Below, piece after piece: positions 1 through 9,947 of a stretch of DNA of 9,947 nt. Under the pieces are notes generated by a model, which was not told the DNA's origin, did no database searches, and was given only the letters and a program-made list of their open reading frames with translations. Origin of the DNA: a virus (Duplodnaviria > Heunggongvirae > Uroviricota > Caudoviricetes); the IMG/VR virus record IMGVR_UViG_2579779116_000007, positions 1 through 9,947 of that record; one strand, given 5' to 3'. Every line of letters starts with the position of its first letter. The first letter of the stretch is position 1. Position numbers and translations under genes: made by a program.

Positions 1-564
1 GCTTCATAGCCTGCTTCTCCTTGCCTTTCGGCACGTAAGAGGCTAACCTAGATTTGCCGTTCATAGATTGAGCCTCAGATTAATGTTAAGCGTCTTGCAG
101 GACGCGTAATGTTAACTGGGGCTTTTCTCTATCTGCCTTTTGGTGTTCATGCCTGAGACAGATAGCCTCAAGCACCCGCAGCAATTCTAACTATCCAATA
201 GATCAATGCCAACTTCTTTTCCTGCAACATCTCTCATCATAAGTGACCAAAATTCATCCAATCAGCACAAAAGAAACATTTAAAGCGTGAATGCTACCGA
301 ACGTTCATTTCAATTACATCGTTTTGATTTTTAACAGTTTTTACCTCAACAAATCAAATGGCATTAGCATTCATCATGGAAGAAAGACTGATAAAAATGA
401 TCATTTTCAATGACTTATGATCACACCGGGTATTGCCAAGTCATTCCTTTTACGCCAGGATACCCACAAGTGAGTAGTCGAGGAGAGTTTGCCAATTTTT
501 GCGATATAAATTTCAATGTCCGAAGAACCATTAATTGTTAATTGATTCTGTATAAGGTATTAAC

Positions 565-1662
565 ATGACAATTTCATATATTCCTATTCTGAAAGCGAAA
601 CGTTCTGAGTTATCAGCTTTATCGCAGCTATCCATTGAAAAGAAATCAAAAATTTTGCCATTACTCGAAATTGAACCAGTGCCAATTGACCCTGATTCAG
701 GTATTGCCTTAAAGAGTTATAACGAGACTCTTATAGAGTTCGGAAAGAAAGTCTCAAAATCTTGCTCAGATATGCAAGGTGTTTATATTGATGGATTATT
801 AATTGAAGAGCATTTTATTTCTCCTGAAGATCATTACCCTATAATAAATGCGGTTAATCAAGTTAGAGATATGGGGATAAGAGTTATTCCTGTCAGTTCA
901 CCAACTCGCCCATCTAACTATAAAAGAGCGATTGATGAATTAATGCAGAATGAAATATGCTTGAGATTAACCACGTTAGATCTGGTTAACCCACAATTAA
1001 TAACGCATTACATTAATCATCTGGGAATTCCTTTATCAAATATTGATATAATTATTGACTTAAGAGATGAGTTAACCGAGGATAAACTTAATTCCGGCGA
1101 ACTATATACTTTGGCAATGGGATTGATAAACAATCTGGCGCACCTCAATGAATACAGAAAAGTGATTCTTTCTGGGGGTTCATTTCCTACAGATCTCAGT
1201 GATATTTCTGTTGGTCTATATTCTCAACCTCGAATCGAGTGGATTTTATGGCAGAGTTTAATGAATAGAAAAGAACTTGCCAGAAATGTGATTTATAGTG
1301 ATTATGGAGTACAGCACCCCGACTTTAATAGGCTTTCGACGCGATTCCCTAACGTATCTGCCAGCGTCAGATACTCTGGAGATAATGACTTTTGGGTATT
1401 TCGAGGAAGAGTAGCTAATCGCTTTGGTTATGAACAATATGGTAAACATAGTGAGGATATTCTTGCTCATCGAGAATATTCAGGGCCTACATTCTGTGCG
1501 GGAGATAGAGACATAGAATATTATGCAAACGAGTATCAAGCCTACAAAGCCAATCCCTCTGGTAACTATAAATTTGGTAGCCCAGAGGTATGGCGTAGGA
1601 TTGGGCAAAACCATCACATAACTAAGGTTGTTGAGCAACTCGCCACTCTTTACGGGCTTTAA
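565..1662 (+). CDS. Hypothetical protein, 365 aa, AT-rich cargo gene; possible partner of the adjacent nuclease-like protein (from memory it resembles the uncharacterised sce7725-type partner family, unverified)
   Basis: ATG at 565 preceded by AAGGT (554-558) with a 6-nt spacer; uninterrupted 366-codon frame; codon usage rich in ATA/AGA/TTA, unlike the flanking prophage genes; no P-loop or methyltransferase motif recognised. Confidence 0.75.
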   Translation: MTISYIPILKAKRSELSALSQLSIEKKSKILPLLEIEPVPIDPDSGIALKSYNETLIEFGKKVSKSCSDMQGVYIDGLLIEEHFISPEDHYPIINAVNQVRDMGIRVIPVSSPTRPSNYKRAIDELMQNEICLRLTTLDLVNPQLITHYINHLGIPLSNIDIIIDLRDELTEDKLNSGELYTLAMGLINNLAHLNEYRKVILSGGSFPTDLSDISVGLYSQPRIEWILWQSLMNRKELARNVIYSDYGVQHPDFNRLSTRFPNVSASVRYSGDNDFWVFRGRVANRFGYEQYGKHSEDILAHREYSGPTFCAGDRDIEYYANEYQAYKANPSGNYKFGSPEVWRRIGQNHHITKVVEQLATLYGL

Positions 1663-2200
1663 GTTTAACTCGAACAGCTTCACGAAGCTCGCCAACATCC
1701 ATACTATTGGCGAGTTTTGACCATAAGACGCGTTTAGGTTTATTTTTCAAATTCTGTAGCTCCCCTACATCACTTAATAGGGAAAGCAATTCATCTTTCC
1801 AAAGAAGCATTGTTAAGGAAAGTTTGTCCACTTGTGGATTCAACTTGCTAGTTCGAATTGTTTTTAAATGGATACCTTGCCGTGCACCTTGCGTAACTTG
1901 CTTTATCCCCCACCATGATGGAACTATGCTTAAAGCATCATAAAGATGGCAATCAGAGACAACCAACGTTACTTTATCCATCACTGATGAGTAATGTTGC
2001 ACCTGCGCTGGTAATCTGAGCAAGTTATCACTTTTGCTCTTCAACTCATAACCATGTATAAGCCCATTGATCACTGCTATATCAGCTCTGCTAGCCCCCA
2101 GATTCATCGTAAACTCATCAATGATTAGGGTGTCAGGATCTTTATGATGATCTCTCAAAATCTTGGCATGCACAGCCTTTCTTACATCAATGTCTCTCAT
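1622..2200 (-). CDS. Hypothetical protein, 192 aa, with a putative PD-(D/E)xK nuclease-like core (E...D-x11-E-x-K); possibly sce7726-like (from memory, unverified)
   Basis: ATG at 2200 (weak SD); 193-codon frame; the segment IIDEF...SRADIAVINGLIHGYELKSKSD places acidic residues and a lysine in the spacing typical of restriction-endonuclease-fold active sites; 3' end overlaps the convergent 365-aa gene by 41 bp. Confidence 0.7.
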   Translation of the reverse strand: MRDIDVRKAVHAKILRDHHKDPDTLIIDEFTMNLGASRADIAVINGLIHGYELKSKSDNLLRLPAQVQHYSSVMDKVTLVVSDCHLYDALSIVPSWWGIKQVTQGARQGIHLKTIRTSKLNPQVDKLSLTMLLWKDELLSLLSDVGELQNLKNKPKRVLWSKLANSMDVGELREAVRVKLKARKEWRVAQQP

Positions 2201-2385
2201 ACCATAGTTGCGCTTTCATCGACTCTCTCAAGCCATGATTCTATATCATGGTTCGCATGAATGCCATTTGATATGACCAGTGGTTGAACATTGCACAGAA
2301 AAGTGGATGTGTATTTTAACAAAAGCAATGACGGCTAACCATGTTGGTATGTCGATAAAATGTTTCAACGTAAGCATTATCTGTT

Positions 2386-2401
2386 CCGCCCTTTCGGGCG
2401 G
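2386..2401. repeat. GC hairpin CCGCCC-TTTC-GGGCGG, copy A (reads as a GAAA tetraloop on the minus-strand transcript)
   Basis: Perfect 6-bp stem with 4-nt loop; an identical sequence recurs at 3061-3076; no U-tract follows on either strand. Confidence 0.7.
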
Positions 2402-2430
2402 CCTCCTGATGTTCTGAGGGTGCAGAAATC

Positions 2431-2481
2431 CCTCCGGTTAAGGATTAAATTGTATTTACAGCGCTAAATTTATTTATTCAG
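2431..2481 (-). promoter_or_regulatory. 51-bp intergenic module, copy A (AT-rich upstream region plus GGAGG SD) that is not followed by a gene: an empty cassette junction
   Basis: About 92% identical to 3306-3356; its last three bases form the TAA stop of the 118-aa gene; the body that module copy B drives is missing here, replaced by about 25 bp containing a short hairpin (GAGGG-n10-CCCTC, 2415-2434). Confidence 0.55.
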
Positions 2482-2830
2482 TTCTGGATTTTGTCGCCCT
2501 GCGTATCCGCGCTTTCGCGTTACGCTCAATCTGAATTAACTTTTCTATATTTTTCCGTCTTTCCTGTTCCTCCTGGCGCAATAGCCTTACATCATCTGCC
2601 AGTCTGGTTTCTCTTTTCGCCACTGAGAGCATCCAGTCAAACGGCTCCACAACTGCACCGCAGATTTTACAGCGGACCTGACGTTCTTTTTCGTCAACCC
2701 GGACAGAGGCGTGATGGCAATATGGTCTTTCCGATGGCTCATAAAGAAAATTAACCTGATTACGTGGGTCATCCTCTTTTGCCGGAAATAAAACAATATT
2801 ACTTAACTCATCTTCTGGTTTTATTTCCAT
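2474..2830 (-). CDS. Hypothetical small phage protein, 118 aa, with a Cys/His cluster (C-H-H...C-K-I-C) suggesting a zinc-ribbon
   Basis: ATG at 2830 with AGGAGAGGAG SD just upstream on the minus strand; the longer ORF-track start (2956) lacks an SD. Confidence 0.6.
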   Translation of the reverse strand: MEIKPEDELSNIVLFPAKEDDPRNQVNFLYEPSERPYCHHASVRVDEKERQVRCKICGAVVEPFDWMLSVAKRETRLADDVRLLRQEEQERRKNIEKLIQIERNAKARIRRATKSRTE

Positions 2831-3060
2831 ACTCCTCTCCTTTGATGCGCAAGTGGTTTTTCCAGCGGTTTTGCGCCGCGCTTCTGCTCCGCCAGACACC
2901 GTAAAAACGAATAGAGGAACACCCCCTAAAACCCAGATATCTATAATAAATAACAAGCCGATTTGAGATACGGATACGCTGCCCGGGCTTTGCTATCAGC
3001 ATCTTTGCTTTACGGTTTTTCATCGTTTTGTTCTCCGATTAGTTCAGCCATTTTTATTAC

Positions 3061-3076
3061 CGCCCTTTCGGGCGGC
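3061..3076. repeat. GC hairpin CCGCCC-TTTC-GGGCGG, copy B, immediately 3' of the 72-aa gene on the minus strand
   Basis: Identical to 2386-2401 including the following CCTCC; sits 10 bp beyond the stop of the 72-aa ORF. Confidence 0.7.
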
Positions 3077-3085
3077 CTCCCGACA

Positions 3086-3304
3086 TTAATCGTTGTGGTA
3101 ACTCATGGCTTCATTTGCAGCATCAACCGGATCAACCTGCCACCAGCAATAATTTGGGTCGGTTCCTTCAGGTGTCCACGGTTCTAATTCATTTTTTGCC
3201 ACATTCTCGTCACCAGTAATTTTAAAAATCTGCTCCGAGAATTTTTTTACCCACTCGTTATATTTTTCCGCATTAATGGTTTTCTGTGTATTTAACATAG
3301 ACAT
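3086..3304 (-). CDS. Hypothetical small phage protein, 72 aa (moron-like gene bracketed by module B and hairpin B)
   Basis: ATG at 3304 with GGAGGT SD; flanked upstream by the 51-bp module and downstream by the GC hairpin. Confidence 0.55.
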   Translation of the reverse strand: MSMLNTQKTINAEKYNEWVKKFSEQIFKITGDENVAKNELEPWTPEGTDPNYCWWQVDPVDAANEAMSYHND

Positions 3305-3305
3305 A

Positions 3306-3356
3306 CCTCCGGTTAAGGATTAAATTTTATTTACAACACTAAATTTAATTATTCAG
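3306..3356 (-). promoter_or_regulatory. 51-bp intergenic module, copy B: AT-rich upstream region plus SD for the 72-aa gene
   Basis: Supplies the GGAGG SD for the ATG at 3304; contains TTTAGTGTT (minus strand, 3335-3343), the same 9-mer repeated in the immunity-region operators. Confidence 0.55.
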
Positions 3357-3549
3357 GCGCGCGAATCTGTTCCGCACAATGCAACAATGCTTCTGTCACT
3401 TCCTTAAGCGTTACGGTATCGGCATCATCCAGTCCTGCAACTTTTGCGTGCCTGACAAACGCCGCGCAAAGGTCGTTAAACGCCCCTGCCCACACATCCG
3501 CCAGGAAAGCGTTGGCAGCAGCCAATTCTTGGTAGTCAATCCCGCTCAC
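3349..3549 (-). CDS. Hypothetical small phage protein, 66 aa
   Basis: GTG start at 3549 overlapping the upstream stop (GTGA), with AGGAGGTGG SD; the stop TAA lies inside module B. Confidence 0.5.
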   Translation of the reverse strand: MSGIDYQELAAANAFLADVWAGAFNDLCAAFVRHAKVAGLDDADTVTLKEVTEALLHCAEQIRAPE

Positions 3550-3962
3550 TGTGCCACCTCCTGAAAATTACCCTGATAAAACGCCAGCACTCGCTGCATA
3601 ACCTCACTATTCCGGCACTCGCGACAGATTATGTTCTGTCGTCTGTTGTAACGACGTATTTCTCCGTCTGGTAATGAATAAACCAAGTCCGGGTCGCTCT
3701 TTTTTTTCACTGCTGCTTTCGACATCTTTTTGCGGGCCTTTATCCAGTCCTTACGAGCCTGTTCAGACGGGAATAGTCCGTAGCCAGAGTTGTATACATC
3801 ACCACTGGCAACCAGCTCTCTGGCGAGAACGCTCATCAGGTATCTTGTCGCCCCTGTTTTAGCTTCCAGTTGCCGTAACGTCTCGCGCCCACTCTGGCGC
3901 ACGAGTTCAATAACCTGCCCTTTAATTTTTTCCCGCTCTTCTGGTGTAAATACTTTTGCCAT
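3546..3962 (-). CDS. Hypothetical phage protein, 138 aa, basic, with a C-terminal CRECR motif
   Basis: ATG at 3962 with GGAGG SD and a 5-nt spacer; the ORF-track start at 3977 is a TTG without an SD. Confidence 0.6.
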   Translation of the reverse strand: MAKVFTPEEREKIKGQVIELVRQSGRETLRQLEAKTGATRYLMSVLARELVASGDVYNSGYGLFPSEQARKDWIKARKKMSKAAVKKKSDPDLVYSLPDGEIRRYNRRQNIICRECRNSEVMQRVLAFYQGNFQEVAQ

Positions 3963-3977
3963 AGGTGCCTCCGGCAA

Positions 3978-4748
3978 TCACTTTTCCGACACAATACGAC
4001 TGGAGGAATCGAAAATATGTCGAACAATATCCCGGTGCTTGTTCAGCTCCCGCAGCGCGGCGCAGATTCGCTCCCACTTCTGGACATGATTTTTCGCCCG
4101 ACGCAGTTCGCGGTTTGCCATATGCAGCGATGGTAAAACCAGGTCATCCGCTCGCGTTTCAGTAAACGATGGCAGCGACTGCACAATGTCCGCCACCGTT
4201 TCTGTTTTAATATCTTCCTGTGTTGCAACCTCCTGTACTGGTAACGCAACCCCCGCTGGCTGAGGAAAGGCTTTACCATCAGTTTCCGCTACCGATGCGG
4301 CTTTCAGTTCTGCTGATAAATTCTCGCCTGGCATGCAGTAACGAAATTTACCGTTCTGATTAACGCGTGCCAGCCGCCCTGTTGAGGTTACTACCGCCAG
4401 CGTGGAAGCAACCTTGCGAATGCTGACACCGAACTTACCCGCCAGTTCCTCACACGTTTTAGCCCCCTCCTTGCCGATAAACTCAATCATCATGTCAGCG
4501 GTAACTTTTTGTTCGCCCACCCCGGTTAGCACATCCGGTGCTTCAGATTGTACTGGCTGCTCTTCGGTTACCCCGGATTCACCTTCACCAGCCAGAAACC
4601 AGGTATGACCTGTTTTATCAACGACGCCATTTCTTTTGAGTTCCCACAGCTCGTTCAGCACTTCTTCACGACTGATATCAAGTCGCGCGGCCAGTTCCAC
4701 CGACGTGGCTTTTCCCATTGCTTTCAGCGCGTCAAAAACAGTCTCCAT
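3978..4748 (-). CDS. Hypothetical prophage protein, 256 aa, with two winged-helix-like segments (possibly a full-length YdaW/DUF1627-type protein, from memory)
   Basis: ATG at 4748 with GGGAGGAAA SD; two segments with HTH character ([30 protein letters not shown] and [24 protein letters not shown]). Confidence 0.65.
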
Positions 4749-4770
4749 TAAAATTTCCTCCCGGTAAAAA

Positions 4771-5517
4771 TTACTTCTCAATTCCTGGCTGGATGACATT
4801 CGTGCGCCAGCTCTCCCAGTTAAAATTCACCCAGCGACCACCGTTCATGGTCATGCGGTCCATCACGCGCTCGCCAAGCAGCGTATTCATCGCCGTATGG
4901 TTCAGGTTCGTCAGCATCCCGACACTACGCATCGAAGCAGTTCTGCGGTCGACTATCTGGTTCAGTGTGACCTGCTCGTTGCGCGTATCCCGCTGCATTC
5001 CGATTTCATCCAGGACAAGCAGGTCAACATCACACAACCCCTGTAAAAATTTTTCGCCTGAGTTTTTGTTGTCGTAGCTGTTGTGTAACGCCAGCATCAC
5101 ATCAGCCACCGTTATCACAATCACGCTGCGACCTTTCGCCAGAAGATGATTGCCAATGGCGGCTGCAAGGTGGTTCTTTCCGGTACCCGGCTTACCGCTG
5201 AACACAAAATTCGTGCCCCCGGTCATCAGTTCGTCAGCGATGGATTTTGCCTGGCTCAGCGCATGTTTTTGCCCGTCGTTCTGCACCTGATAATTCGCAA
5301 ACGAGCATTTGCTGTGCAGAGGCTGGATGCCCGAACGATTCAGGATTTTTTCCACCCGCAACTGGCGATTCTGGCGGTTGCTCTCCTCGCTACGTTTTCG
5401 CCCTTCAGCCAGTTGCCACTCGCGCCACTCATCCACTGTCCGGTACGGCGCGATTACATGCTGCGGGGTCAGCTTACGGATACGCTCAAGAACACCACCT
5501 GCCGCGATATTTTTCAT
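4771..5517 (-). CDS. DnaC-like AAA+ helicase loader (phage P-equivalent; YdaV-like), 248 aa
   Basis: Walker [18 protein letters not shown] and Walker [10 protein letters not shown]; start lies 6 bp after the O-like gene's stop. Confidence 0.9.
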
Positions 5518-5523
5518 GGCCCG

Positions 5524-6471
5524 TTACCCCCTGAACCCCGGCGGAATTTCGGTATCCGGCTCAGAAATATGATTCACACAACGCTGTACAGACGAACGCC
5601 CCAGGCGGATAACCAGTTCATCCCATTTTTCGCGAAGCTTTGACGGACTCATGATATTTTTTACCCAGAATGGATCCCGCTGCACCCGACCAAACATTTC
5701 ACAAATTTGTCTGTGAGTTCTGCCATCCAGCATCCGCATTGTGCGCACGTCGTTGGCCCATGCGGTCCAGTTGGGTTCTTTCGGTCGCGAAATCTCGCCA
5801 TCATCGCTGGCGGCCTGCTCGTAAAGACTCACGATTCGCCCCCAGATCCACTGTGCACACGCCAAATCTTCCTGGTTACCCCACTGGCGTTTTTTCGCAC
5901 TGAACACAACCGCGTCAGGGTGTCGGGTTAAAAAGTCCTGTTCAGCCGTCTGCATGTCCGGTTGCGAAGCTTCCGGACGAAAAGATCTTTTATCTGACGA
6001 ATCAGGTTTTAATACTGACGGATCGGGGCCAACCATCGCCCCCCTATCCGACTGTTTTTTATCAACGGTTGATCCATCAAAATTTGATGGGTTAACCGTT
6101 GAGGGGGCAATATTTGACGGGTCATTTTTTGCCTGGCTAATTTTTCTTTTCGGTTTATATGCCTCACGCGCCGCCGCTGCTGCTGCTTCGAGTTTTTCCA
6201 CATTAAGACGGTAGATATTGCTTTCATTACGCCCACCGACCTTACGTTCCTCCTTCGTCAGCCAGCCGTTCTTTTCCAGTTCTGCTATCGCAGCTTTAAC
6301 CGTTGATTCACTCTTTGCCCCAATCTGACGACGAATGGTCTCCACCGCAGGCCATGACACACCTTCGTCATTGCTGTAATCTGCAAGGCGAGCCATAACT
6401 GCCACCCTGGATAAGATCATGCCGGTGAAGGCACACCCTTCCCAGACAAGACCATGAAGCTTGCTGCTCAT
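5524..6471 (-). CDS. Replication initiator, O-like/YdaU-like, 315 aa, with an N-terminal HTH and the origin iterons in its linker region
   Basis: ATG at 6471; N-terminal HTH-like segment; Ala-rich and Pro/Ser-rich linker whose coding DNA carries four iteron-like repeats followed by an AT-rich tract; positioned directly upstream of the DnaC-like gene. Confidence 0.8.
   Translation of the reverse strand: MSSKLHGLVWEGCAFTGMILSRVAVMARLADYSNDEGVSWPAVETIRRQIGAKSESTVKAAIAELEKNGWLTKEERKVGGRNESNIYRLNVEKLEAAAAAAREAYKPKRKISQAKNDPSNIAPSTVNPSNFDGSTVDKKQSDRGAMVGPDPSVLKPDSSDKRSFRPEASQPDMQTAEQDFLTRHPDAVVFSAKKRQWGNQEDLACAQWIWGRIVSLYEQAASDDGEISRPKEPNWTAWANDVRTMRMLDGRTHRQICEMFGRVQRDPFWVKNIMSPSKLREKWDELVIRLGRSSVQRCVNHISEPDTEIPPGFRG
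6061..6160. repeat. Putative phage replication origin: four iteron-like repeats (about 15-17 bp each, ending TTGAYGGG-like) plus an adjacent AT-rich tract, inside the O-like gene
   Basis: ATCAACGGTTGATCC / ATCAAAATTTGATGGG / TTAACCGTTGAGGGG / CAATATTTGACGGGTCA at 6061-6124, then TTTTTTGCCTGGCTAATTTTTCTTTTCGGTTTATAT. Confidence 0.6.
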
Positions 6472-6494
6472 AAAAAACTCCGAACACCGTGCTT

Positions 6495-6920
6495 TTAGTG
6501 CATCACCAAGGCATTTCCTGCCGGGCCACCACGATTCATCTGATTGAAACCAGCGATCGCCACTGCGACAAAATCATCAGCGTCTCTCACCAGTCGTTCC
6601 CGCGTCTCCACCAGCTCCCGAAAATAAGCTGAACTGTGGCTGCGCATTCTGGCCACCAGCAAAGGTGGCATTGCCTTTTCGATCGCTGGTAACAACGCCT
6701 GAATTTTTTCAACTGCATCAGGGGTGTCTTTCTCTACCCAGCGGAAAATTTTCTGGGTATTGCGAGCCAGGGCTTCCGGATGGCTGTCGTCATACAGTTC
6801 AGGAAACGTCATACCCAACTCAAAATAAGCCTGGGTTATTCCAGCTGCCGGAACTTTTTCACCATCCGGATGCGCCCAGGCATTCATCGCCATGCGGATG
6901 TGCTCATGTTTGATTTTCAT
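6495..6920 (-). CDS. ydaT: YdaT-family protein (CII-like regulator, historically annotated as a toxin), 141 aa
   Basis: Start MKIKHEH..., length and position after the Cro-like gene match Rac YdaT as I recall it; its ATG overlaps the upstream stop (ATGA). Confidence 0.75.
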   Translation of the reverse strand: MKIKHEHIRMAMNAWAHPDGEKVPAAGITQAYFELGMTFPELYDDSHPEALARNTQKIFRWVEKDTPDAVEKIQALLPAIEKAMPPLLVARMRSHSSAYFRELVETRERLVRDADDFVAVAIAGFNQMNRGGPAGNALVMH

Positions 6921-7219
6921 GAATCAACTCCATCAGATAAGCATGCACTACAATCACCTTCAGCATGAACTACATGTGTTTGCCCCAAACGAATGCCGCT
7001 CGCATACTCAGGCCAAATAAGCTCCCAATCATGGGGTCGTAGCTCCGCCCTACTTACTTGGCCTTCCGTCGCAGATTCGATCATAAGGGCGCGGGTTGGA
7101 GATATAGCTGCTCGTCCAGACGCCATTTGCGATAAGTAAGATGGCGATACACCAAGTCTGGCCGCGAATTTCTTAGCATCACCAACCCTCAATGATTTAA
7201 TAAACTCTTTTAATGTCAT
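6917..7219 (-). CDS. ydaS: Cro-like HTH regulator (YdaS-like), 100 aa, first gene of the leftward early operon
   Basis: ATG at 7219 with GAGGAAGG SD; HTH-like segment AARLGVSPSYLSQMASGRAAIS; divergent from the repressor gene. Confidence 0.7.
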   Translation of the reverse strand: MTLKEFIKSLRVGDAKKFAARLGVSPSYLSQMASGRAAISPTRALMIESATEGQVSRAELRPHDWELIWPEYASGIRLGQTHVVHAEGDCSACLSDGVDS

Positions 7220-7228
7220 ACCTTCCTC

Positions 7229-7316
7229 GGTTTAGTGTTTTTTTGCGAGTTTAGTGTTTAATAAACCATTAAGTCAAGTATTTGCTTGTTTAGTGATTAC
7301 TAAAGATAATTACCAC
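7229..7316. promoter_or_regulatory. Divergent immunity promoter/operator region: three direct GTTTAGTG(T/A)T repeats and two face-to-face sigma70-like promoters
   Basis: Repeats start at 7230, 7249 and 7288 (19 and 39 bp apart). Plus strand: TTGCTT (7282-7287), 17 bp, GATAAT (7305-7310), then 6 nt to the ATG at 7317, implying a leaderless repressor mRNA. Minus strand: TTGACT (reverse complement of 7272-7277), 18 bp, TAAACT. Confidence 0.55.
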
Positions 7317-7688
7317 ATGCAAAAAAAAGAAATTCGCCGTTTACGTCTCAAGGAGTGGTTTAAAGATAAAACTCTGCCACCCAAAGAGAAGAGCTACCTA
7401 TCTCAACTAATGAGTGGGAGAGCATCGTTTGGAGAAAAGGCTGCCAGAAGAATAGAGCAAACATACGGGATGCCGGAAGGGTATCTGGATGCGGAATACG
7501 CAGAACAACCGGAGGTTTCTCCACCACATGCAGGGTTAACGCCTAATCAACTGGAATTATTGCAGATTTTTTCAGCCTTCCCTGAGGATGAGCAACGCCA
7601 GATAATCAGCGAGTTAAAGCAGAAAAAAGAATCAATGGAAGATCTCATAGCGAGATGGATTGCGGCGCAAAAATGCCGCCGCGCCTGA
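7317..7688 (+). CDS. Prophage repressor / TA-associated regulator (CI/DicA-like, PaaR-like), 123 aa
   Basis: HTH-like segment KSYLSQLMSGRASFGEKAARRIEQTYG; no SD, but the promoter geometry predicts a leaderless start at this ATG; occupies the cI/dicA position; no S24 peptidase domain. Confidence 0.7.
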   Translation: MQKKEIRRLRLKEWFKDKTLPPKEKSYLSQLMSGRASFGEKAARRIEQTYGMPEGYLDAEYAEQPEVSPPHAGLTPNQLELLQIFSAFPEDEQRQIISELKQKKESMEDLIARWIAAQKCRRA

Positions 7689-7708
7689 GTTATAAAACCG
7701 GAGGAAAC

Positions 7709-7900
7709 ATGAATAGAGCCCTTTCACCAATGGTTTCTGAATTTGAAACCATTGAACAAGAAAACAGTTACAACGAATGGCTGCGTGCGAAAGTAGCAAC
7801 GAGCCTTGCAGATCCGCGCCCAGCAATTCCCCATGACGAAGTTGAGCGCAGAATGGCAGAACGCTTTGCTAAAATGCGCAAGGAACGGAGCAAGCAGTAA
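7709..7900 (+). CDS. Antitoxin of the ParE-family toxin (PaaA-like), 63 aa
   Basis: GGAGG SD (7700-7704) with a 4-nt spacer; the stop is 1 nt before the toxin ATG; the size matches the 63-aa PaaA2 antitoxin as I recall it. Confidence 0.75.
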   Translation: MNRALSPMVSEFETIEQENSYNEWLRAKVATSLADPRPAIPHDEVERRMAERFAKMRKERSKQ

Positions 7901-7901
7901 A

Positions 7902-8180
7902 ATGTTACCCGTGTTATGGCTTGAAAGCGCAGATACCGACCTAGATGATATAACTAGTTATATTGCTCGTTTCGACATAGATGCGGCTGAACGCTTATGG
8001 CAGCGATTAAGGGGTTGTGTGCTGCCGTTATCCGAACATCCGTATTTATACCCACCAAGCGACAGAGTACCTGGCTTGCGTGAGATTGTAGCCCACCCTA
8101 ACTATATAATTCTATACCGCGTAACAACATCAAGCGTTGAAGTAGTAAACGTGATCCACGCAAGACGCCAGTTTCCCTAA
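7902..8180 (+). CDS. parE: ParE/RelE-superfamily toxin, 92 aa
   Basis: Typical ParE features: N-terminal W...A..DL..I..YIA and C-terminal YRV...VEVVNVIHARR; tightly coupled to the upstream antitoxin. Confidence 0.8.
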   Translation: MLPVLWLESADTDLDDITSYIARFDIDAAERLWQRLRGCVLPLSEHPYLYPPSDRVPGLREIVAHPNYIILYRVTTSSVEVVNVIHARRQFP

Positions 8181-8251
8181 CTTTCACTACCAATAGAAAC
8201 ATAGCAACCGCAACGACTTTATCAAAAGCGTTGTGTTTGTTACGCTCCGCG

Positions 8252-8296
8252 GTTTAGTTTTTACTTGACTTAAGTTTAATGTTTATTAAACTTAAG
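8252..8296 (+). promoter_or_regulatory. Putative promoter/operator for the ydfA-ydfB-ydfC(-dicF) operon: operator-like GTTTAGTT, TTGACT-16-TAAACT, and a perfect 12-bp inverted repeat
   Basis: GTTTAGTT at 8252-8259; TTGACT at 8265-8270 and TAAACT at 8287-8292; inverted repeat CTTAAGTTTAAT-GTTT-ATTAAACTTAAG at 8269-8296; shares TTGACTTAA...GTTTATTAAAC with the minus-strand promoter at 7255-7280. Confidence 0.5.
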
Positions 8297-8471
8297 ATAC
8301 CAACCCACCCCGAGCCACAGAACGCCAGGCAATACTTCGAGTTATCCGGCAGTGGTCAGGGGATAAGTAGCCAGCCCGAGGCGTAAGAACATGACGGCAG
8401 GGTTCAACTTTAATAACTATGCAGCAGGTTTTTGTTCCGCTACCCCAGCGTTAAGGGGAAATGAGGTCAAC

Positions 8472-8627
8472 ATGGATACTATCGATCTTGGCAACAACGA
8501 ATCTCTGGTGTGCGGCGTGTTTCCCAACCAGGACGGCACATTCACCGCGATGACGTATACCAAAAGCAAAACGTTTAAAACCGAATCTGGAGCGCGTCGC
8601 TGGCTGGAAAGAAATTCAGGTGGGTGA
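8472..8627 (+). CDS. ydfA: YdfA-like small protein, 51 aa
   Basis: ATG at 8472 with GAGG SD and a 5-nt spacer (the ORF-track start at 8391 lacks an SD); size and position match ydfA of the Qin dicB operon as I recall it. Confidence 0.65.
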   Translation: MDTIDLGNNESLVCGVFPNQDGTFTAMTYTKSKTFKTESGARRWLERNSGG

Positions 8628-8628
8628 T

Positions 8629-8757
8629 ATGGATTTCGACACAATCATGGAAAAGGCTTACGAAGAATACTTCGAAGGCCTTGCCGAAGGCGAAGAAACT
8701 CTCAGCTTCAGCGAATTTAAACAGGCGCTTTCCAGCTCGGCAAAATCTAGCGGCTGA
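8629..8757 (+). CDS. ydfB: YdfB-like small protein, 42 aa (not in the ORF track)
   Basis: ATG at 8629, one nt after the ydfA stop, with AGGTGG SD; translates MDFDTIMEKAYEEYFEGLAEGEETLSFSEFKQALSSSAKSSG. Confidence 0.6.
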   Translation: MDFDTIMEKAYEEYFEGLAEGEETLSFSEFKQALSSSAKSSG

Positions 8758-8786
8758 TAAGCGAAACAGCACCGCGAGGAATCAGT

Positions 8787-9005
8787 ATGCAGAAACGAGA
8801 ACCCGTCATCATCGCGCCAGACTATACCGATGATGAGCTTTATGAGTGGATGCGCCAGAAAATTAATGCAGCGCAGGATCTGAAATGGGCCAATGAAGCC
8901 AGGGCTAAGCAGGCTGAAAATCTGTCCGCTCTGGAGCAGGATATCACCAGGCTGGAAAAAGCAGCGGCATTAAGCATTGCCAGAATGATTACATACCCGC
9001 GTTAA
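8787..9005 (+). CDS. ydfC: YdfC-like small protein, 72 aa
   Basis: ATG at 8787 with GAGGA SD and a 6-nt spacer; size and order match ydfC as I recall it. Confidence 0.65.
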   Translation: MQKREPVIIAPDYTDDELYEWMRQKINAAQDLKWANEARAKQAENLSALEQDITRLEKAAALSIARMITYPR

Positions 9006-9027
9006 TAGCTAACCAACGAGGCTAATA

Positions 9028-9348
9028 ATGGAATTTAAAGATTTACCAATGCAATTCCAGGAAATGGCAGCGAATATAGTTCGTTCCCAACTGGCGACTC
9101 TTGACCTGAGTACCGTAGAAAAAGAAACCATCGATACTATATCCGGTAACGTGCGTCGTGCCTTTATCGGTCTGTACGAAGAGAAGCAGCTCTCTGATAA
9201 CCAGGATTTACATGAAAAATACTTCCTGGAACTAATGGACATCATTGATAAGGGGTTTGGCTTGTTAATGAAAAAGAAAGGGATTCGAATAGAACCCCTT
9301 GAAAATTACTTTGCAACAAAAAGCATTAATTCTTTTGATTCAAAATAA
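9028..9348 (+). CDS. Hypothetical protein, 106 aa, AT-rich, acidic and helical in character
   Basis: ATG at 9028 with GAGG SD; clean frame; 3' end overlaps the convergent 91-aa ORF by 23 bp. Confidence 0.55.
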   Translation: MEFKDLPMQFQEMAANIVRSQLATLDLSTVEKETIDTISGNVRRAFIGLYEEKQLSDNQDLHEKYFLELMDIIDKGFGLLMKKKGIRIEPLENYFATKSINSFDSK

Positions 9349-9601
9349 GAGAATTAATTACAGACTTAACATGCTCTTTCTCATGATTGAAGCTCTCATG
9401 ATTGAAAGTGCCGGGTTGAAGCGAGTCGATATAATCAACAAGACTCTGTCGTACGACTTCATTTTTATCCATAACAGATGCAAGAAATGAAATTGCTAAA
9501 AGAGTTATATCACTACGCGCCGCAGCATGCTGCAATGCTTTATCAAAATTATTAATCTGGCGTATCAGGGAGTTAATGATTTCATCATTTTCAGTCGACA
9601 T
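9326..9601 (-). CDS. Hypothetical protein, 91 aa
   Basis: ATG at 9601 preceded by AGGAGGG SD; the ORF-track frame extends 111 codons further upstream into GC-rich DNA with no start signal, so I truncated it. Confidence 0.55.
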   Translation of the reverse strand: MSTENDEIINSLIRQINNFDKALQHAAARSDITLLAISFLASVMDKNEVVRQSLVDYIDSLQPGTFNHESFNHEKEHVKSVINSLILNQKN

Positions 9602-9935
9602 TTCACCCTCCTGAGGGTTGGTGATTAAGGAGTTCTCCACGGGTGAGGTGGAGTGCGTGCGCCGGACACGGGTGAGCATCCGGCACTGACAGTTTACTGA
9701 AAGGATATTTCCCTGAAAAATCAGACCATAACGCGAAAGCGCACGGCGAGGTAGCTGGTTCATAGATAGCCTGTCGTTAAATTTTCGTCGACCGTGCGCT
9801 TCCGGTTGTGGCACTCCGCGAAATGGCGCGGCGGTAAGTATGGCGGGGTTATTCCTTCCCCGTTGAGGACACCGGGTTGTCAGGTTGACCATACGCTTAA
9901 GTGACAACCCCGCTGCAACGCCCTCTGTTATCAAT

Positions 9936-9947
9936 TTTCTGGTGACG
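9936..9947 (+). ncRNA. dicF: Probable 5' end of the DicF sRNA, truncated by the window edge
   Basis: The terminal TTTCTGGTGACG matches the start of DicF as I recall it (TTTCTGGTGACGTTTGGCGG...) and lies where expected downstream of ydfC; only 12 nt are visible. Confidence 0.4.

Follow-up and report, generated by a model that had tools for sequence, protein, structure and literature searches.

Why does a temperate phage carry the same short AT-rich module and the same GC-rich hairpin twice within a single run of small genes? The question arises from a 9,947-nucleotide (nt) stretch of Caudoviricetes DNA (IMG/VR virus record IMGVR_UViG_2579779116_000007, positions 1 to 9,947; the window, in what follows, is this whole stretch), in which module and hairpin bracket a gene for a protein of about 70 amino acids (aa) and recur 0.9 kb away with only a short spacer between them. 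The original prediction took these elements for the borders of a moron-like cassette, one copy being filled and the other empty. Our analysis confirmed the observation and supported its interpretation in part: the element is a linker between genes and not a terminator, and it is neither a moron, nor a degenerate cassette, nor a general slot for alternative genes.

Anatomy of the duplicated linker

A repeat finder paired the two modules as family D1 (modules A and B in Table 1; 58 nt, 90% identical) and the two hairpin regions as family D3 (2375-2409 vs 3049-3083; 35 nt, 83% identical). The earlier estimate of about 92% identity over 51 nt also holds, 4 of those 51 positions being different. 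The 21-mer composed of GGAGG and the GC hairpin, GGAGGCCGCCCGAAAGGGCGG, is present in exactly two copies in the window, both on the minus strand (2386-2406 and 3060-3080), and shuffled sequence gave 0.00 matches to it even at 3 mismatches; the 21-mer at the core of the module, AATTTAATCCTTAACCGGAGG, occurs exactly twice against 0.01 occurrences expected from shuffles. Hence, the duplication is real, and it is mainly in its details that the first description had to be adjusted. Hairpin A had been placed correctly, whereas hairpin B occupies 3060-3075 and not 3061-3076. Both modules do contain the TAA stop codon of the preceding gene, but these codons sit 5 nt inside the module ends rather than exactly at them, and the homology extends into both upstream genes, whose final codons read ...CT GAA TAA. 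The approximately 25 bp said to separate the two elements of copy A correspond to the 24 nt that lie between the two GGAGG motifs of this copy, one in module A and one beside hairpin A, and a start codon located 8 nt past each hairpin (CAT at 2375-2377 and 3049-3051) had been missed as a part of the repeat. For the protein encoded between the elements of copy B, a length of 70 aa is most likely instead of the proposed 72 aa: the second ATG (3296-3298) lies 7 nt past the GGAGG of module B, which pairs at -10.8 kcal/mol, and this start fits phrog_4659 and its RefSeq relatives, where the protein is annotated as 70 aa. Sequence searches of Pfam, NCBIfam, PADLOC and PDB retrieved no match to this protein.

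Rather than separate borders, module and hairpin are the two halves, 5' and 3' respectively, of a single intercistronic linker with a core of ~95 nt. On the minus strand the linker consists of the final codons of the upstream gene, stop included (...CTGAATAA), an AU-rich spacer, a first Shine-Dalgarno sequence (SD1, GGAGG), either a 24-nt spacer or one 70-aa open reading frame (ORF), a second Shine-Dalgarno sequence (SD2, AGGAG(G/A)), a hairpin with a 6-bp GC stem and a GNRA loop, a spacer of 6-11 nt and a start codon. The window contains two such linkers in direct orientation, one in each state, 875 nt apart from module to module. Linker A is non-coding except for its last 8 nt (2474-2481), and its core matches 149 empty linkers of related loci, which disposes of the concern that copy A might be part of a coding sequence. 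The hairpin common to both linkers is predicted to fold at -12.6 kcal/mol and in 96% of the ensemble. In module A the SD1 region is predicted to be paired in the majority fold; CTGAAT (2476-2481) and ATTTAG (2464-2469) form a weak palindrome or hairpin, and the CCCTC of the adjoining spacer (2416-2420) is predicted to be able to pair with either SD1 or SD2. Linker B leads into a 13-codon mini-ORF, which is probably what a mosaic joint has left of the start of an M(A/T)ELTKE... gene; one of the related loci (L002) has this arrangement too.

The linker as a mosaic joint

Related linkers were collected from viral contigs, which were scanned with the hairpin 21-mer and the spacer of the empty form, and from annotated relatives; the resulting set comprised 180 loci totalling 1.7 Mb. 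The module core was found 187 times in these loci, followed in 149 cases by the 24-nt spacer GATTTCTGCACCCTCAGAACATCA and the hairpin and in the other 38 by a phrog_4659 gene and the hairpin; none of the 187 linkers had any other content between module and hairpin. Therefore, the empty form, with its own conserved spacer, is the default state of the element and not the degenerate counterpart of a filled copy. The presence/absence polymorphism of the 70-aa gene is nonetheless a true one, as had been anticipated: filled and empty linkers differ almost exactly by the ORF, homology extending up to the start codon (GGAGGTATATCT followed by ATG vs GGAGGGATTTCT followed by GCA) and resuming around the stop codon. 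The empty spacer resembles the 5' end of the 70-aa gene (CAGAA...), but over too short a length to identify it as a remnant of that gene. The idea that small genes in general are gained or lost between the borders did not survive this survey; phrog_4659 is the sole occupant family, and the variable genes lie outside, upstream of the module or downstream of the hairpin. Related phages do carry both border elements, in agreement with the original prediction.

At least seven kinds of 3' end run into ...CTGAATAA and the module, and at least eight unrelated gene families begin 6-11 nt past the stem, including those of the 60-aa MRKFK protein, DUF4014, MTELTKEQ..., MEITKERL... and MQEIKENI..., mini-ORFs, the 43-aa ORF of the window and others. 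Upstream gene, occupancy and downstream gene were associated in 52 distinct combinations among the 187 linkers. When the 77 unique empty linkers were aligned, conservation was restricted to columns 24-119, with a sharp drop on both sides. All four haplotypes were observed for 166 of the 435 pairs of polymorphic sites in the 95-nt core, some of these pairs being only 6-14 nt apart, which points to crossovers inside the linker, recurrent mutation being the less likely source. The left part of the module tends to stay with the gene upstream of it; the module-B signature of the window, for instance, follows the same 66-aa gene in relatives, whose linker there is empty. Recombination between the two modules of the window would delete the 70-aa, 71-aa and 118-aa genes, and recombination between the two hairpins the 71-aa and 118-aa genes; the predicted product, a 66-aa gene followed by an empty linker, exists in relatives. 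The linker is thus shown, as far as sequence comparison goes, to be a promiscuous mosaic joint with internal crossovers, which upholds the earlier proposal of conserved linker elements at mosaic joints. Given the unrelated flanks and these crossovers, recombination between linkers gains, loses or reshuffles the neighbouring genes, the 70-aa gene included.

In phage and plasmid collections the linker was found in Escherichia only (E. coli, E. albertii and E. fergusonii), except for one Actinobacillus-labelled record, its carriers being Rac-like prophages, Stx/lambdoid phages and phage-like plasmids. That record, PP818812.1 (labelled Actinobacillus phage vB_Apl-pPE4), has the linker at 95.8% identity beside an Ead/Ea22-like gene, which could reflect either a host mis-assignment or a recent transfer. 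A 161-nt stretch around linker A was matched in 2,383 of the 5,426 complete E. coli genomes. In phage ArgO145 the early-left gene array contains two linkers, of which one is filled and the other empty; thus, accessory-gene arrays on either arm of a lambdoid genome make use of the element. This range was taken from BLAST collections because the 15-base pattern AATCCTTAACNGGAGG, scanned against 596 Gb of genome contigs, proved too short: nearly all of its 120 matches occurred by chance in unrelated taxa, with one true E. coli match. The 21-mer also appeared in one other context, within a coding sequence (QEAARKGG) of an unrelated phage, and this occurrence is irrelevant here (L039). The 118-aa Zn-ribbon protein was considered as a dedicated partner of the linker and rejected, its gene being absent from 87 of 179 linker-bearing loci.

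Short conserved boundary or linker sequences have been described at the mosaic joints of lambdoid phages (Susskind & Botstein 1978; Clark et al. 2001 on phage HK620, cited in PMC3029335). Like them, the element studied here is a short conserved stretch at a gene boundary, extending from the stop region to 6-11 nt before the next start, and its non-homologous flanks occur in many combinations, as fits homologous recombination at the linker; gene-boundary position, non-homologous flanks and combinatorial assortment with crossovers are all found together. It differs from the known boundary sequences in its own sequence, which has no match to HK620, P22 or Sf6 in the phage collection, in its greater length, in existing in two states with and without one ORF, in its predicted structured ribosome-binding site (RBS) and in being present in both PR-side (Rac-like) and PL-side (Stx phage ArgO145) arrays. 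A likeness to integrons is also apparent. Integron gene cassettes are promoterless small ORFs with recurring attC sites and an IntI integrase, and the operon of the window likewise contains an array of promoterless small ORFs split by a recurring structured element. However, no integrase-like family was detected among the scanned window proteins, the window has no paired inverse-core and core sites, and the pattern of exchange fits homologous recombination; a lone CCTTAAC near-match in the module was discarded, since it has no partner core site.

The hairpin as part of a probable split ribosome-binding site

We favour, with moderate confidence, a reading in which the mosaic joint is at the same time a hairpin-bridged split RBS for whichever ORF follows the stem. 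The hairpin would loop out 16 nt between SD2 and the start codon and SD2 would then act at an effective rather than a linear distance, as in genes 38 and 25 of phage T4; the linker would thereby hand a ready-made RBS to any ORF joined just past the stem, while SD1 and the AU-rich leader would be the RBS of the 70-aa gene where this is present. The arrangement of the linkers is consistent with such a function. AGGAG(G/A) adjoins the 5' side of the stem and a start codon lies within 6-11 nt of its 3' side, with the exceptions of loci L127 and L170, and in the 11 types of spacer the distance from SD2 to AUG amounts to 22-27 nt in linear terms and to 6-11 nt once the hairpin is subtracted. The spacers past the hairpin are devoid of a Shine-Dalgarno sequence in 10 of 11 kinds (-1.2 kcal/mol or weaker against the anti-Shine-Dalgarno sequence), the AGGAGG on the 5' side of the stem reaches -10.3 kcal/mol, and the other genes of the operon have Shine-Dalgarno sequences of -5.9 to -11.6 kcal/mol in the usual place. 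The strongest comparative point comes from genes that occur in both contexts: DUF4014 (13 cases) and MTELT-type (5 cases) genes of these loci not located behind the hairpin have a canonical AAGGAG, GGGAG or GAGGA 5-8 nt before their start, whereas the copies that follow the hairpin lack it. Furthermore, the gene starts annotated in RefSeq and GenBank coincide with the ATG past the hairpin, and of the 77 unique linkers, 76 keep the GGAG core of SD2 unchanged; L127, the lone exception, has no gene past its hairpin.

The precedent in T4 is a close one. There, a hairpin reduces the spacing in the split initiation regions of genes 38 and 25 from 22 to 5 nt and from 27 to 11 nt, respectively (Nivinskas et al. 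1999; Malys & Nivinskas 2009, reviewed in PMC3014915). By prediction, the linker has the same features, namely a Shine-Dalgarno sequence more than 20 nt from the start codon (22-27 nt, as in T4), a stable intervening hairpin that would cut this spacing to 6-11 nt and no nearer Shine-Dalgarno sequence in the spacer that is left. The two systems differ in that the linker is unrelated in sequence, belongs to temperate Escherichia phages and has a structure modelled without the support of covariation, and also in that one Shine-Dalgarno hairpin would be used here for many unrelated genes, T4 having one hairpin per gene. No other recurring arrangement of Shine-Dalgarno sequence, hairpin and ATG was found in the 1.7 Mb of related loci.

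Several observations weigh against the split RBS or lend it no support. A covariation test of three candidate hairpins in the 77 unique linkers against shuffles gave no signal, the sequences being too similar: with little variation to draw on, stem pairing was retained in 94.6% of cells, which equals the shuffles, a single compensatory A-U change was found, and a comparison of C-to-U with G-to-A changes in the GC stem was uninformative, as five stem sites vary by pair-breaking and another five by pair-preserving transitions. In a few natural variants the stem is weaker (e.g. CCACCC...GGGCAG) and yet the spacer has gained no Shine-Dalgarno sequence, and the MEITKERL family has a GGAG of its own there. 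The predicted folds of empty linkers let CCCUC pair partly with SD2. In the window itself, the hairpins serve the 13-codon mini-ORF (B) and an unannotated 43-aa ORF (A), and in L127 and L170 the hairpin just ends the operon opposite a convergent gene. Finally, conservation by itself is no proof of function in a set of close relatives that all come from Escherichia. A putative compensatory change in a GGAGGG/CCCTC hairpin (L060) was dismissed as a register shift. As for the two exceptional loci, L127 (~9380-9450) and L170 (minus strand) have the 3' end of the convergent gene after the hairpin, SD2 being GGAAG in the former and the loop being AAAA in the latter.

The original prediction had assigned the hairpin a role in stabilising or processing RNA. 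Hairpins of this sort, REP (repetitive extragenic palindromic) elements among them, are known between the cistrons of E. coli operons, where they are GC-rich, lack a U-tract and form part of polycistronic messages. In this scenario, endonucleolytic cleavage in AU-rich parts would be followed by a block of 3'-to-5' exonucleases at the hairpin, with protection of the upstream cistron and differential expression as the outcome. The present hairpin is likewise a stable, GC-rich structure between cistrons; the sequence past it reads UAAUAAAAAUG or AACAGAUAAUG on the gene strand and CCUCC on the other, with a U-tract on neither, and scans of both strands detected no terminator-like site at either hairpin, which bears out the earlier statement that it is not an intrinsic terminator. 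Its constant position at the 3' end of a cistron or linker, the AU-rich stretches upstream of it and its place as the last element of the operon in L127 and L170 would also suit a stabiliser, which could coexist with a split RBS. Nonetheless, the hairpin has a non-REP sequence and is a 16-nt perfect stem-loop fused to a Shine-Dalgarno sequence with a start codon close behind. A stabiliser has no need for that abutting sequence nor for a start codon at 6-11 nt in at least eight unrelated families, and it leaves the missing Shine-Dalgarno sequences of the spacers unexplained; the evidence favours the translation initiation of the next gene over stabilisation or processing, which we consider unlikely. 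Another account would see the linker as a young and neutral recombination scar, spread and homogenised by homologous recombination among Escherichia prophages, with a functionless hairpin and a functionless second GGAGG. The absent covariation signal, the presence of variants that weaken the stem, the restriction to hosts of one genus and a linker identity of ~90-95%, similar to that of the adjoining coding DNA, are what a scar would leave, but it would hardly predict that the genes joined downstream consistently lack a Shine-Dalgarno sequence which their relatives have elsewhere, that the breakpoints put the start codon 6-11 nt past the stem or that the GGAG core of SD2 is almost invariant. 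We regard this account as quite unlikely.

Two further alternatives were weighed. GNRA-type hairpins are common as protein-binding sites, the loop variant GAAA to GGCA retains the GNRA pattern, and alternating pairing of CCCUC with SD1 or SD2 would permit a switch; the element could on these grounds be a cis-acting operator for an RNA-binding regulator of phage or host (a translational repressor or a nut/boxB-like site) or a part of a small RNA. However, an Rfam 15 search of positions 2300-3400 yielded no match at E <= 1, no boxA-like match as expected of a lambda-type nut site occurs near either hairpin, and the divergent promoter region is ~4 kb upstream of the hairpin site, which places the latter far from the early promoters. 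A promoter and a terminator for a small RNA are missing, the commonest neighbour, the 118-aa Zn-ribbon gene, is lacking in about half of the linker loci, and no paper with the hairpin or module sequences was found in a full-text search of the open literature. This makes an operator very improbable. The moron-like character given to the 70-aa gene at the outset fares still worse. Morons are a feature of lambdoid phages (Juhala et al. 2000; Hendrix et al. 2000; the concept is also cited in PMC3029335), and the 70-aa gene resembles them in being an extra small gene present in some phages and absent in others between the same flanks (38 filled vs 149 empty) and in its G+C content (~0.35-0.39), which is slightly below that of its neighbours. 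Unlike an autonomous unit with its own promoter and intrinsic terminator, this gene has neither: on the gene strand, neither module nor hairpin gave a promoter-like or terminator-like match in the site scan, with no sigma-70-like promoter in the module and no U-tract past the hairpin, and a plus-strand promoter match in module copy B is at chance level and not conserved in copy A. The operon context is tight, with SD1 7 nt before the ATG and the next Shine-Dalgarno sequence 5 nt after the stop codon. The gene is thus a promoterless ORF inside an operon, and the moron hypothesis, contradicted by these features, is practically untenable.

Returning to the linker as a mosaic joint and probable split RBS, it is tempting to go one step further and to see in it a selected, portable 'socket' rather than a passive scar, in which recombination homology and a ready-made hairpin-bridged RBS are united in one ~100-nt element. 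General or phage (RecET/Red-type) recombination would use the homology of the linker to swap small accessory genes, and an ORF devoid of a Shine-Dalgarno sequence would be expressed at once when joined 6-11 nt past the stem. We offer this extension tentatively and find it rather doubtful; if true, it would mean that the accessory arrays of Escherichia temperate phages operate as a cassette system with no integrase dedicated to it, present in ~44% of complete E. coli genomes.

Genomic setting and significance

Gene and family scans of the window place all genes around both linkers on the minus strand, in a PR-type operon of a Rac-like prophage (Table 1). After the DUF977/Ren-like gene, this operon continues with the 66-aa, 70-aa (72-aa in the first description), 71-aa and 118-aa genes, the 43-aa ORF and a gene of the sce7726 family.

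Table 1. Linker elements and operon genes of the window.
Feature	Position	Strand	Remarks
Linker A, complete empty form	2378-2481	minus	from end of 118-aa gene (CTGAATAA) to base before next ATG
Module A, AU-rich	2424-2481	minus	TAA 2474-2476; SD1 GGAGG(G) 2430-2435
Empty-state spacer, 24 nt, GATTTCTGCACCCTCAGAACATCA	2407-2430	minus	conserved in 149 linkers
SD2-A, GGAGG	2402-2406	minus	abuts hairpin A
Hairpin A, CCGCCC-GAAA-GGGCGG	2386-2401	minus	6-bp GC stem, GNRA tetraloop
Module B, left half of filled linker	3299-3356	minus	TAA 3349-3351 of 66-aa gene; SD1 GGAGG 3306-3310
Linker B, right half	3052-3085	minus	TGTCG; SD2 GGAGG 3076-3080; hairpin B 3060-3075; 8-nt spacer 3052-3059
13-codon mini-ORF (MAELIGEQNDEKP)	3010-3051	minus	starts 8 nt past hairpin B; overlaps start of 71-aa gene (3021-3023)
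cro-like gene	6917-7219	minus	operon start
ydaT-like gene	6495-6920	minus	operon
O-like initiator	5524-6471	minus	operon
DnaC-like loader	4771-5517	minus	operon
DUF1627 gene	3978-4799	minus	operon
DUF977/Ren-like gene	3546-3977	minus	operon
66-aa gene, phrog_27745	3349-3549	minus	upstream of module B
70-aa gene, phrog_4659	3086-3298	minus	first read as 72 aa from 3304; PHROG match E = 6.6e-51
71-aa gene, phrog_1380	2808-3023	minus	with own Shine-Dalgarno sequence
118-aa Zn-ribbon gene, phrog_1621	2474-2830	minus	commonest upstream neighbour of linker
43-aa ORF	2246-2377	minus	ATG 2375-2377, 8 nt past hairpin A

Judging from its matches, the window is a mosaic Rac-like prophage: parts of it match thousands of E. 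coli prophages, the maximum coverage by any complete E. coli genome is 64%, and its left part is common to phage Rac-SA53 and E. coli O111:H8 strain 8E. The small genes overlap at two points, the 71-aa ORF with the start of the 118-aa gene by 23 nt (2808-2830) and the mini-ORF after hairpin B with the 71-aa gene, its 3' end being 10 nt inside the latter; with genes packed this closely, translation may be coupled. The 43-aa ORF has no family match and is unannotated in a close relative, and its status as a real gene is doubtful. In phage Rac-SA53 the insertion sequence IS1 (L298, 3594-4359; window equivalent ~2355-2365) interrupts the counterpart of this ORF just past hairpin A, with the target duplication AAACATTT; therefore, the ORF is dispensable for that phage.

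The left end of the window is a hok/sok (hokD-type) type I toxin-antitoxin locus, with a full-length match to the sok antitoxin RNA at positions 2-177 of the minus strand (Rfam RF01794, 112 bits, E = 1.5e-25) and hokD annotated there in relatives. Adjoining it, two convergent genes, 565-1662 (plus) and 1622-2200 (minus), overlap at their 3' ends by 41 nt and encode a 365-aa 'beta family' protein (PADLOC PD-Lambda-2_C, E = 7e-42) and a 192-aa sce7726-family protein (NCBIfam E = 2e-56; PADLOC 'cll'), respectively; the two are candidates for an anti-phage defence pair that the prophage carries as cargo. A promoter-like site, ATGGCA-18-TAGAAT, at 2238-2267 (minus), inside the 43-aa ORF and ~40 nt upstream of the sce7726 start, is a chance-level match; it may give the cargo genes transcription of their own, separate from the early operon. 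Two sets of repeats were recorded elsewhere in the window. A near-perfect 20-nt inverted repeat, TCAACGGTTGATCCATCAAA and TTTGATGGGTTAACCGTTGA, 1 nt apart (6062-6102), lies inside the O-like initiator gene and could be part of an origin embedded in that gene, as is the origin of lambda. The direct repeats TTTGCGAGTTTAGTGTTTAATAAA and TTTGCTTGTTTAGTGATTACTAAA, 39 nt apart (7242-7304), are located where the cro-like gene and the plus-strand genes diverge and have an inverted partner ~1 kb off (8268-8291); they are probably operator sites of the immunity region.

Taken as a whole, the linker adds a new and widespread case to two known categories: to the boundary sequences of lambdoid phages and, probably, to the split Shine-Dalgarno sites. 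It represents real but fairly ordinary phage gene shuffling and opens no major unsolved question. In practical terms, it is a handy marker of mosaic breakpoints in E. coli prophages, and annotation should take into account starts located 6-11 nt past the hairpin without an adjacent Shine-Dalgarno sequence, since small ORFs at that position are easily missed. If our reading is true, the split Shine-Dalgarno arrangement of T4 genes 38 and 25 would extend to temperate phages, with one Shine-Dalgarno hairpin used for many genes. Accessory arrays of lambdoid prophages often hold anti-defence or host-takeover genes, and the linker would then provide a concrete example of how such prophages shuffle small accessory genes: with the linker in common, a site for crossover and the expression of an incoming gene would both be assured.

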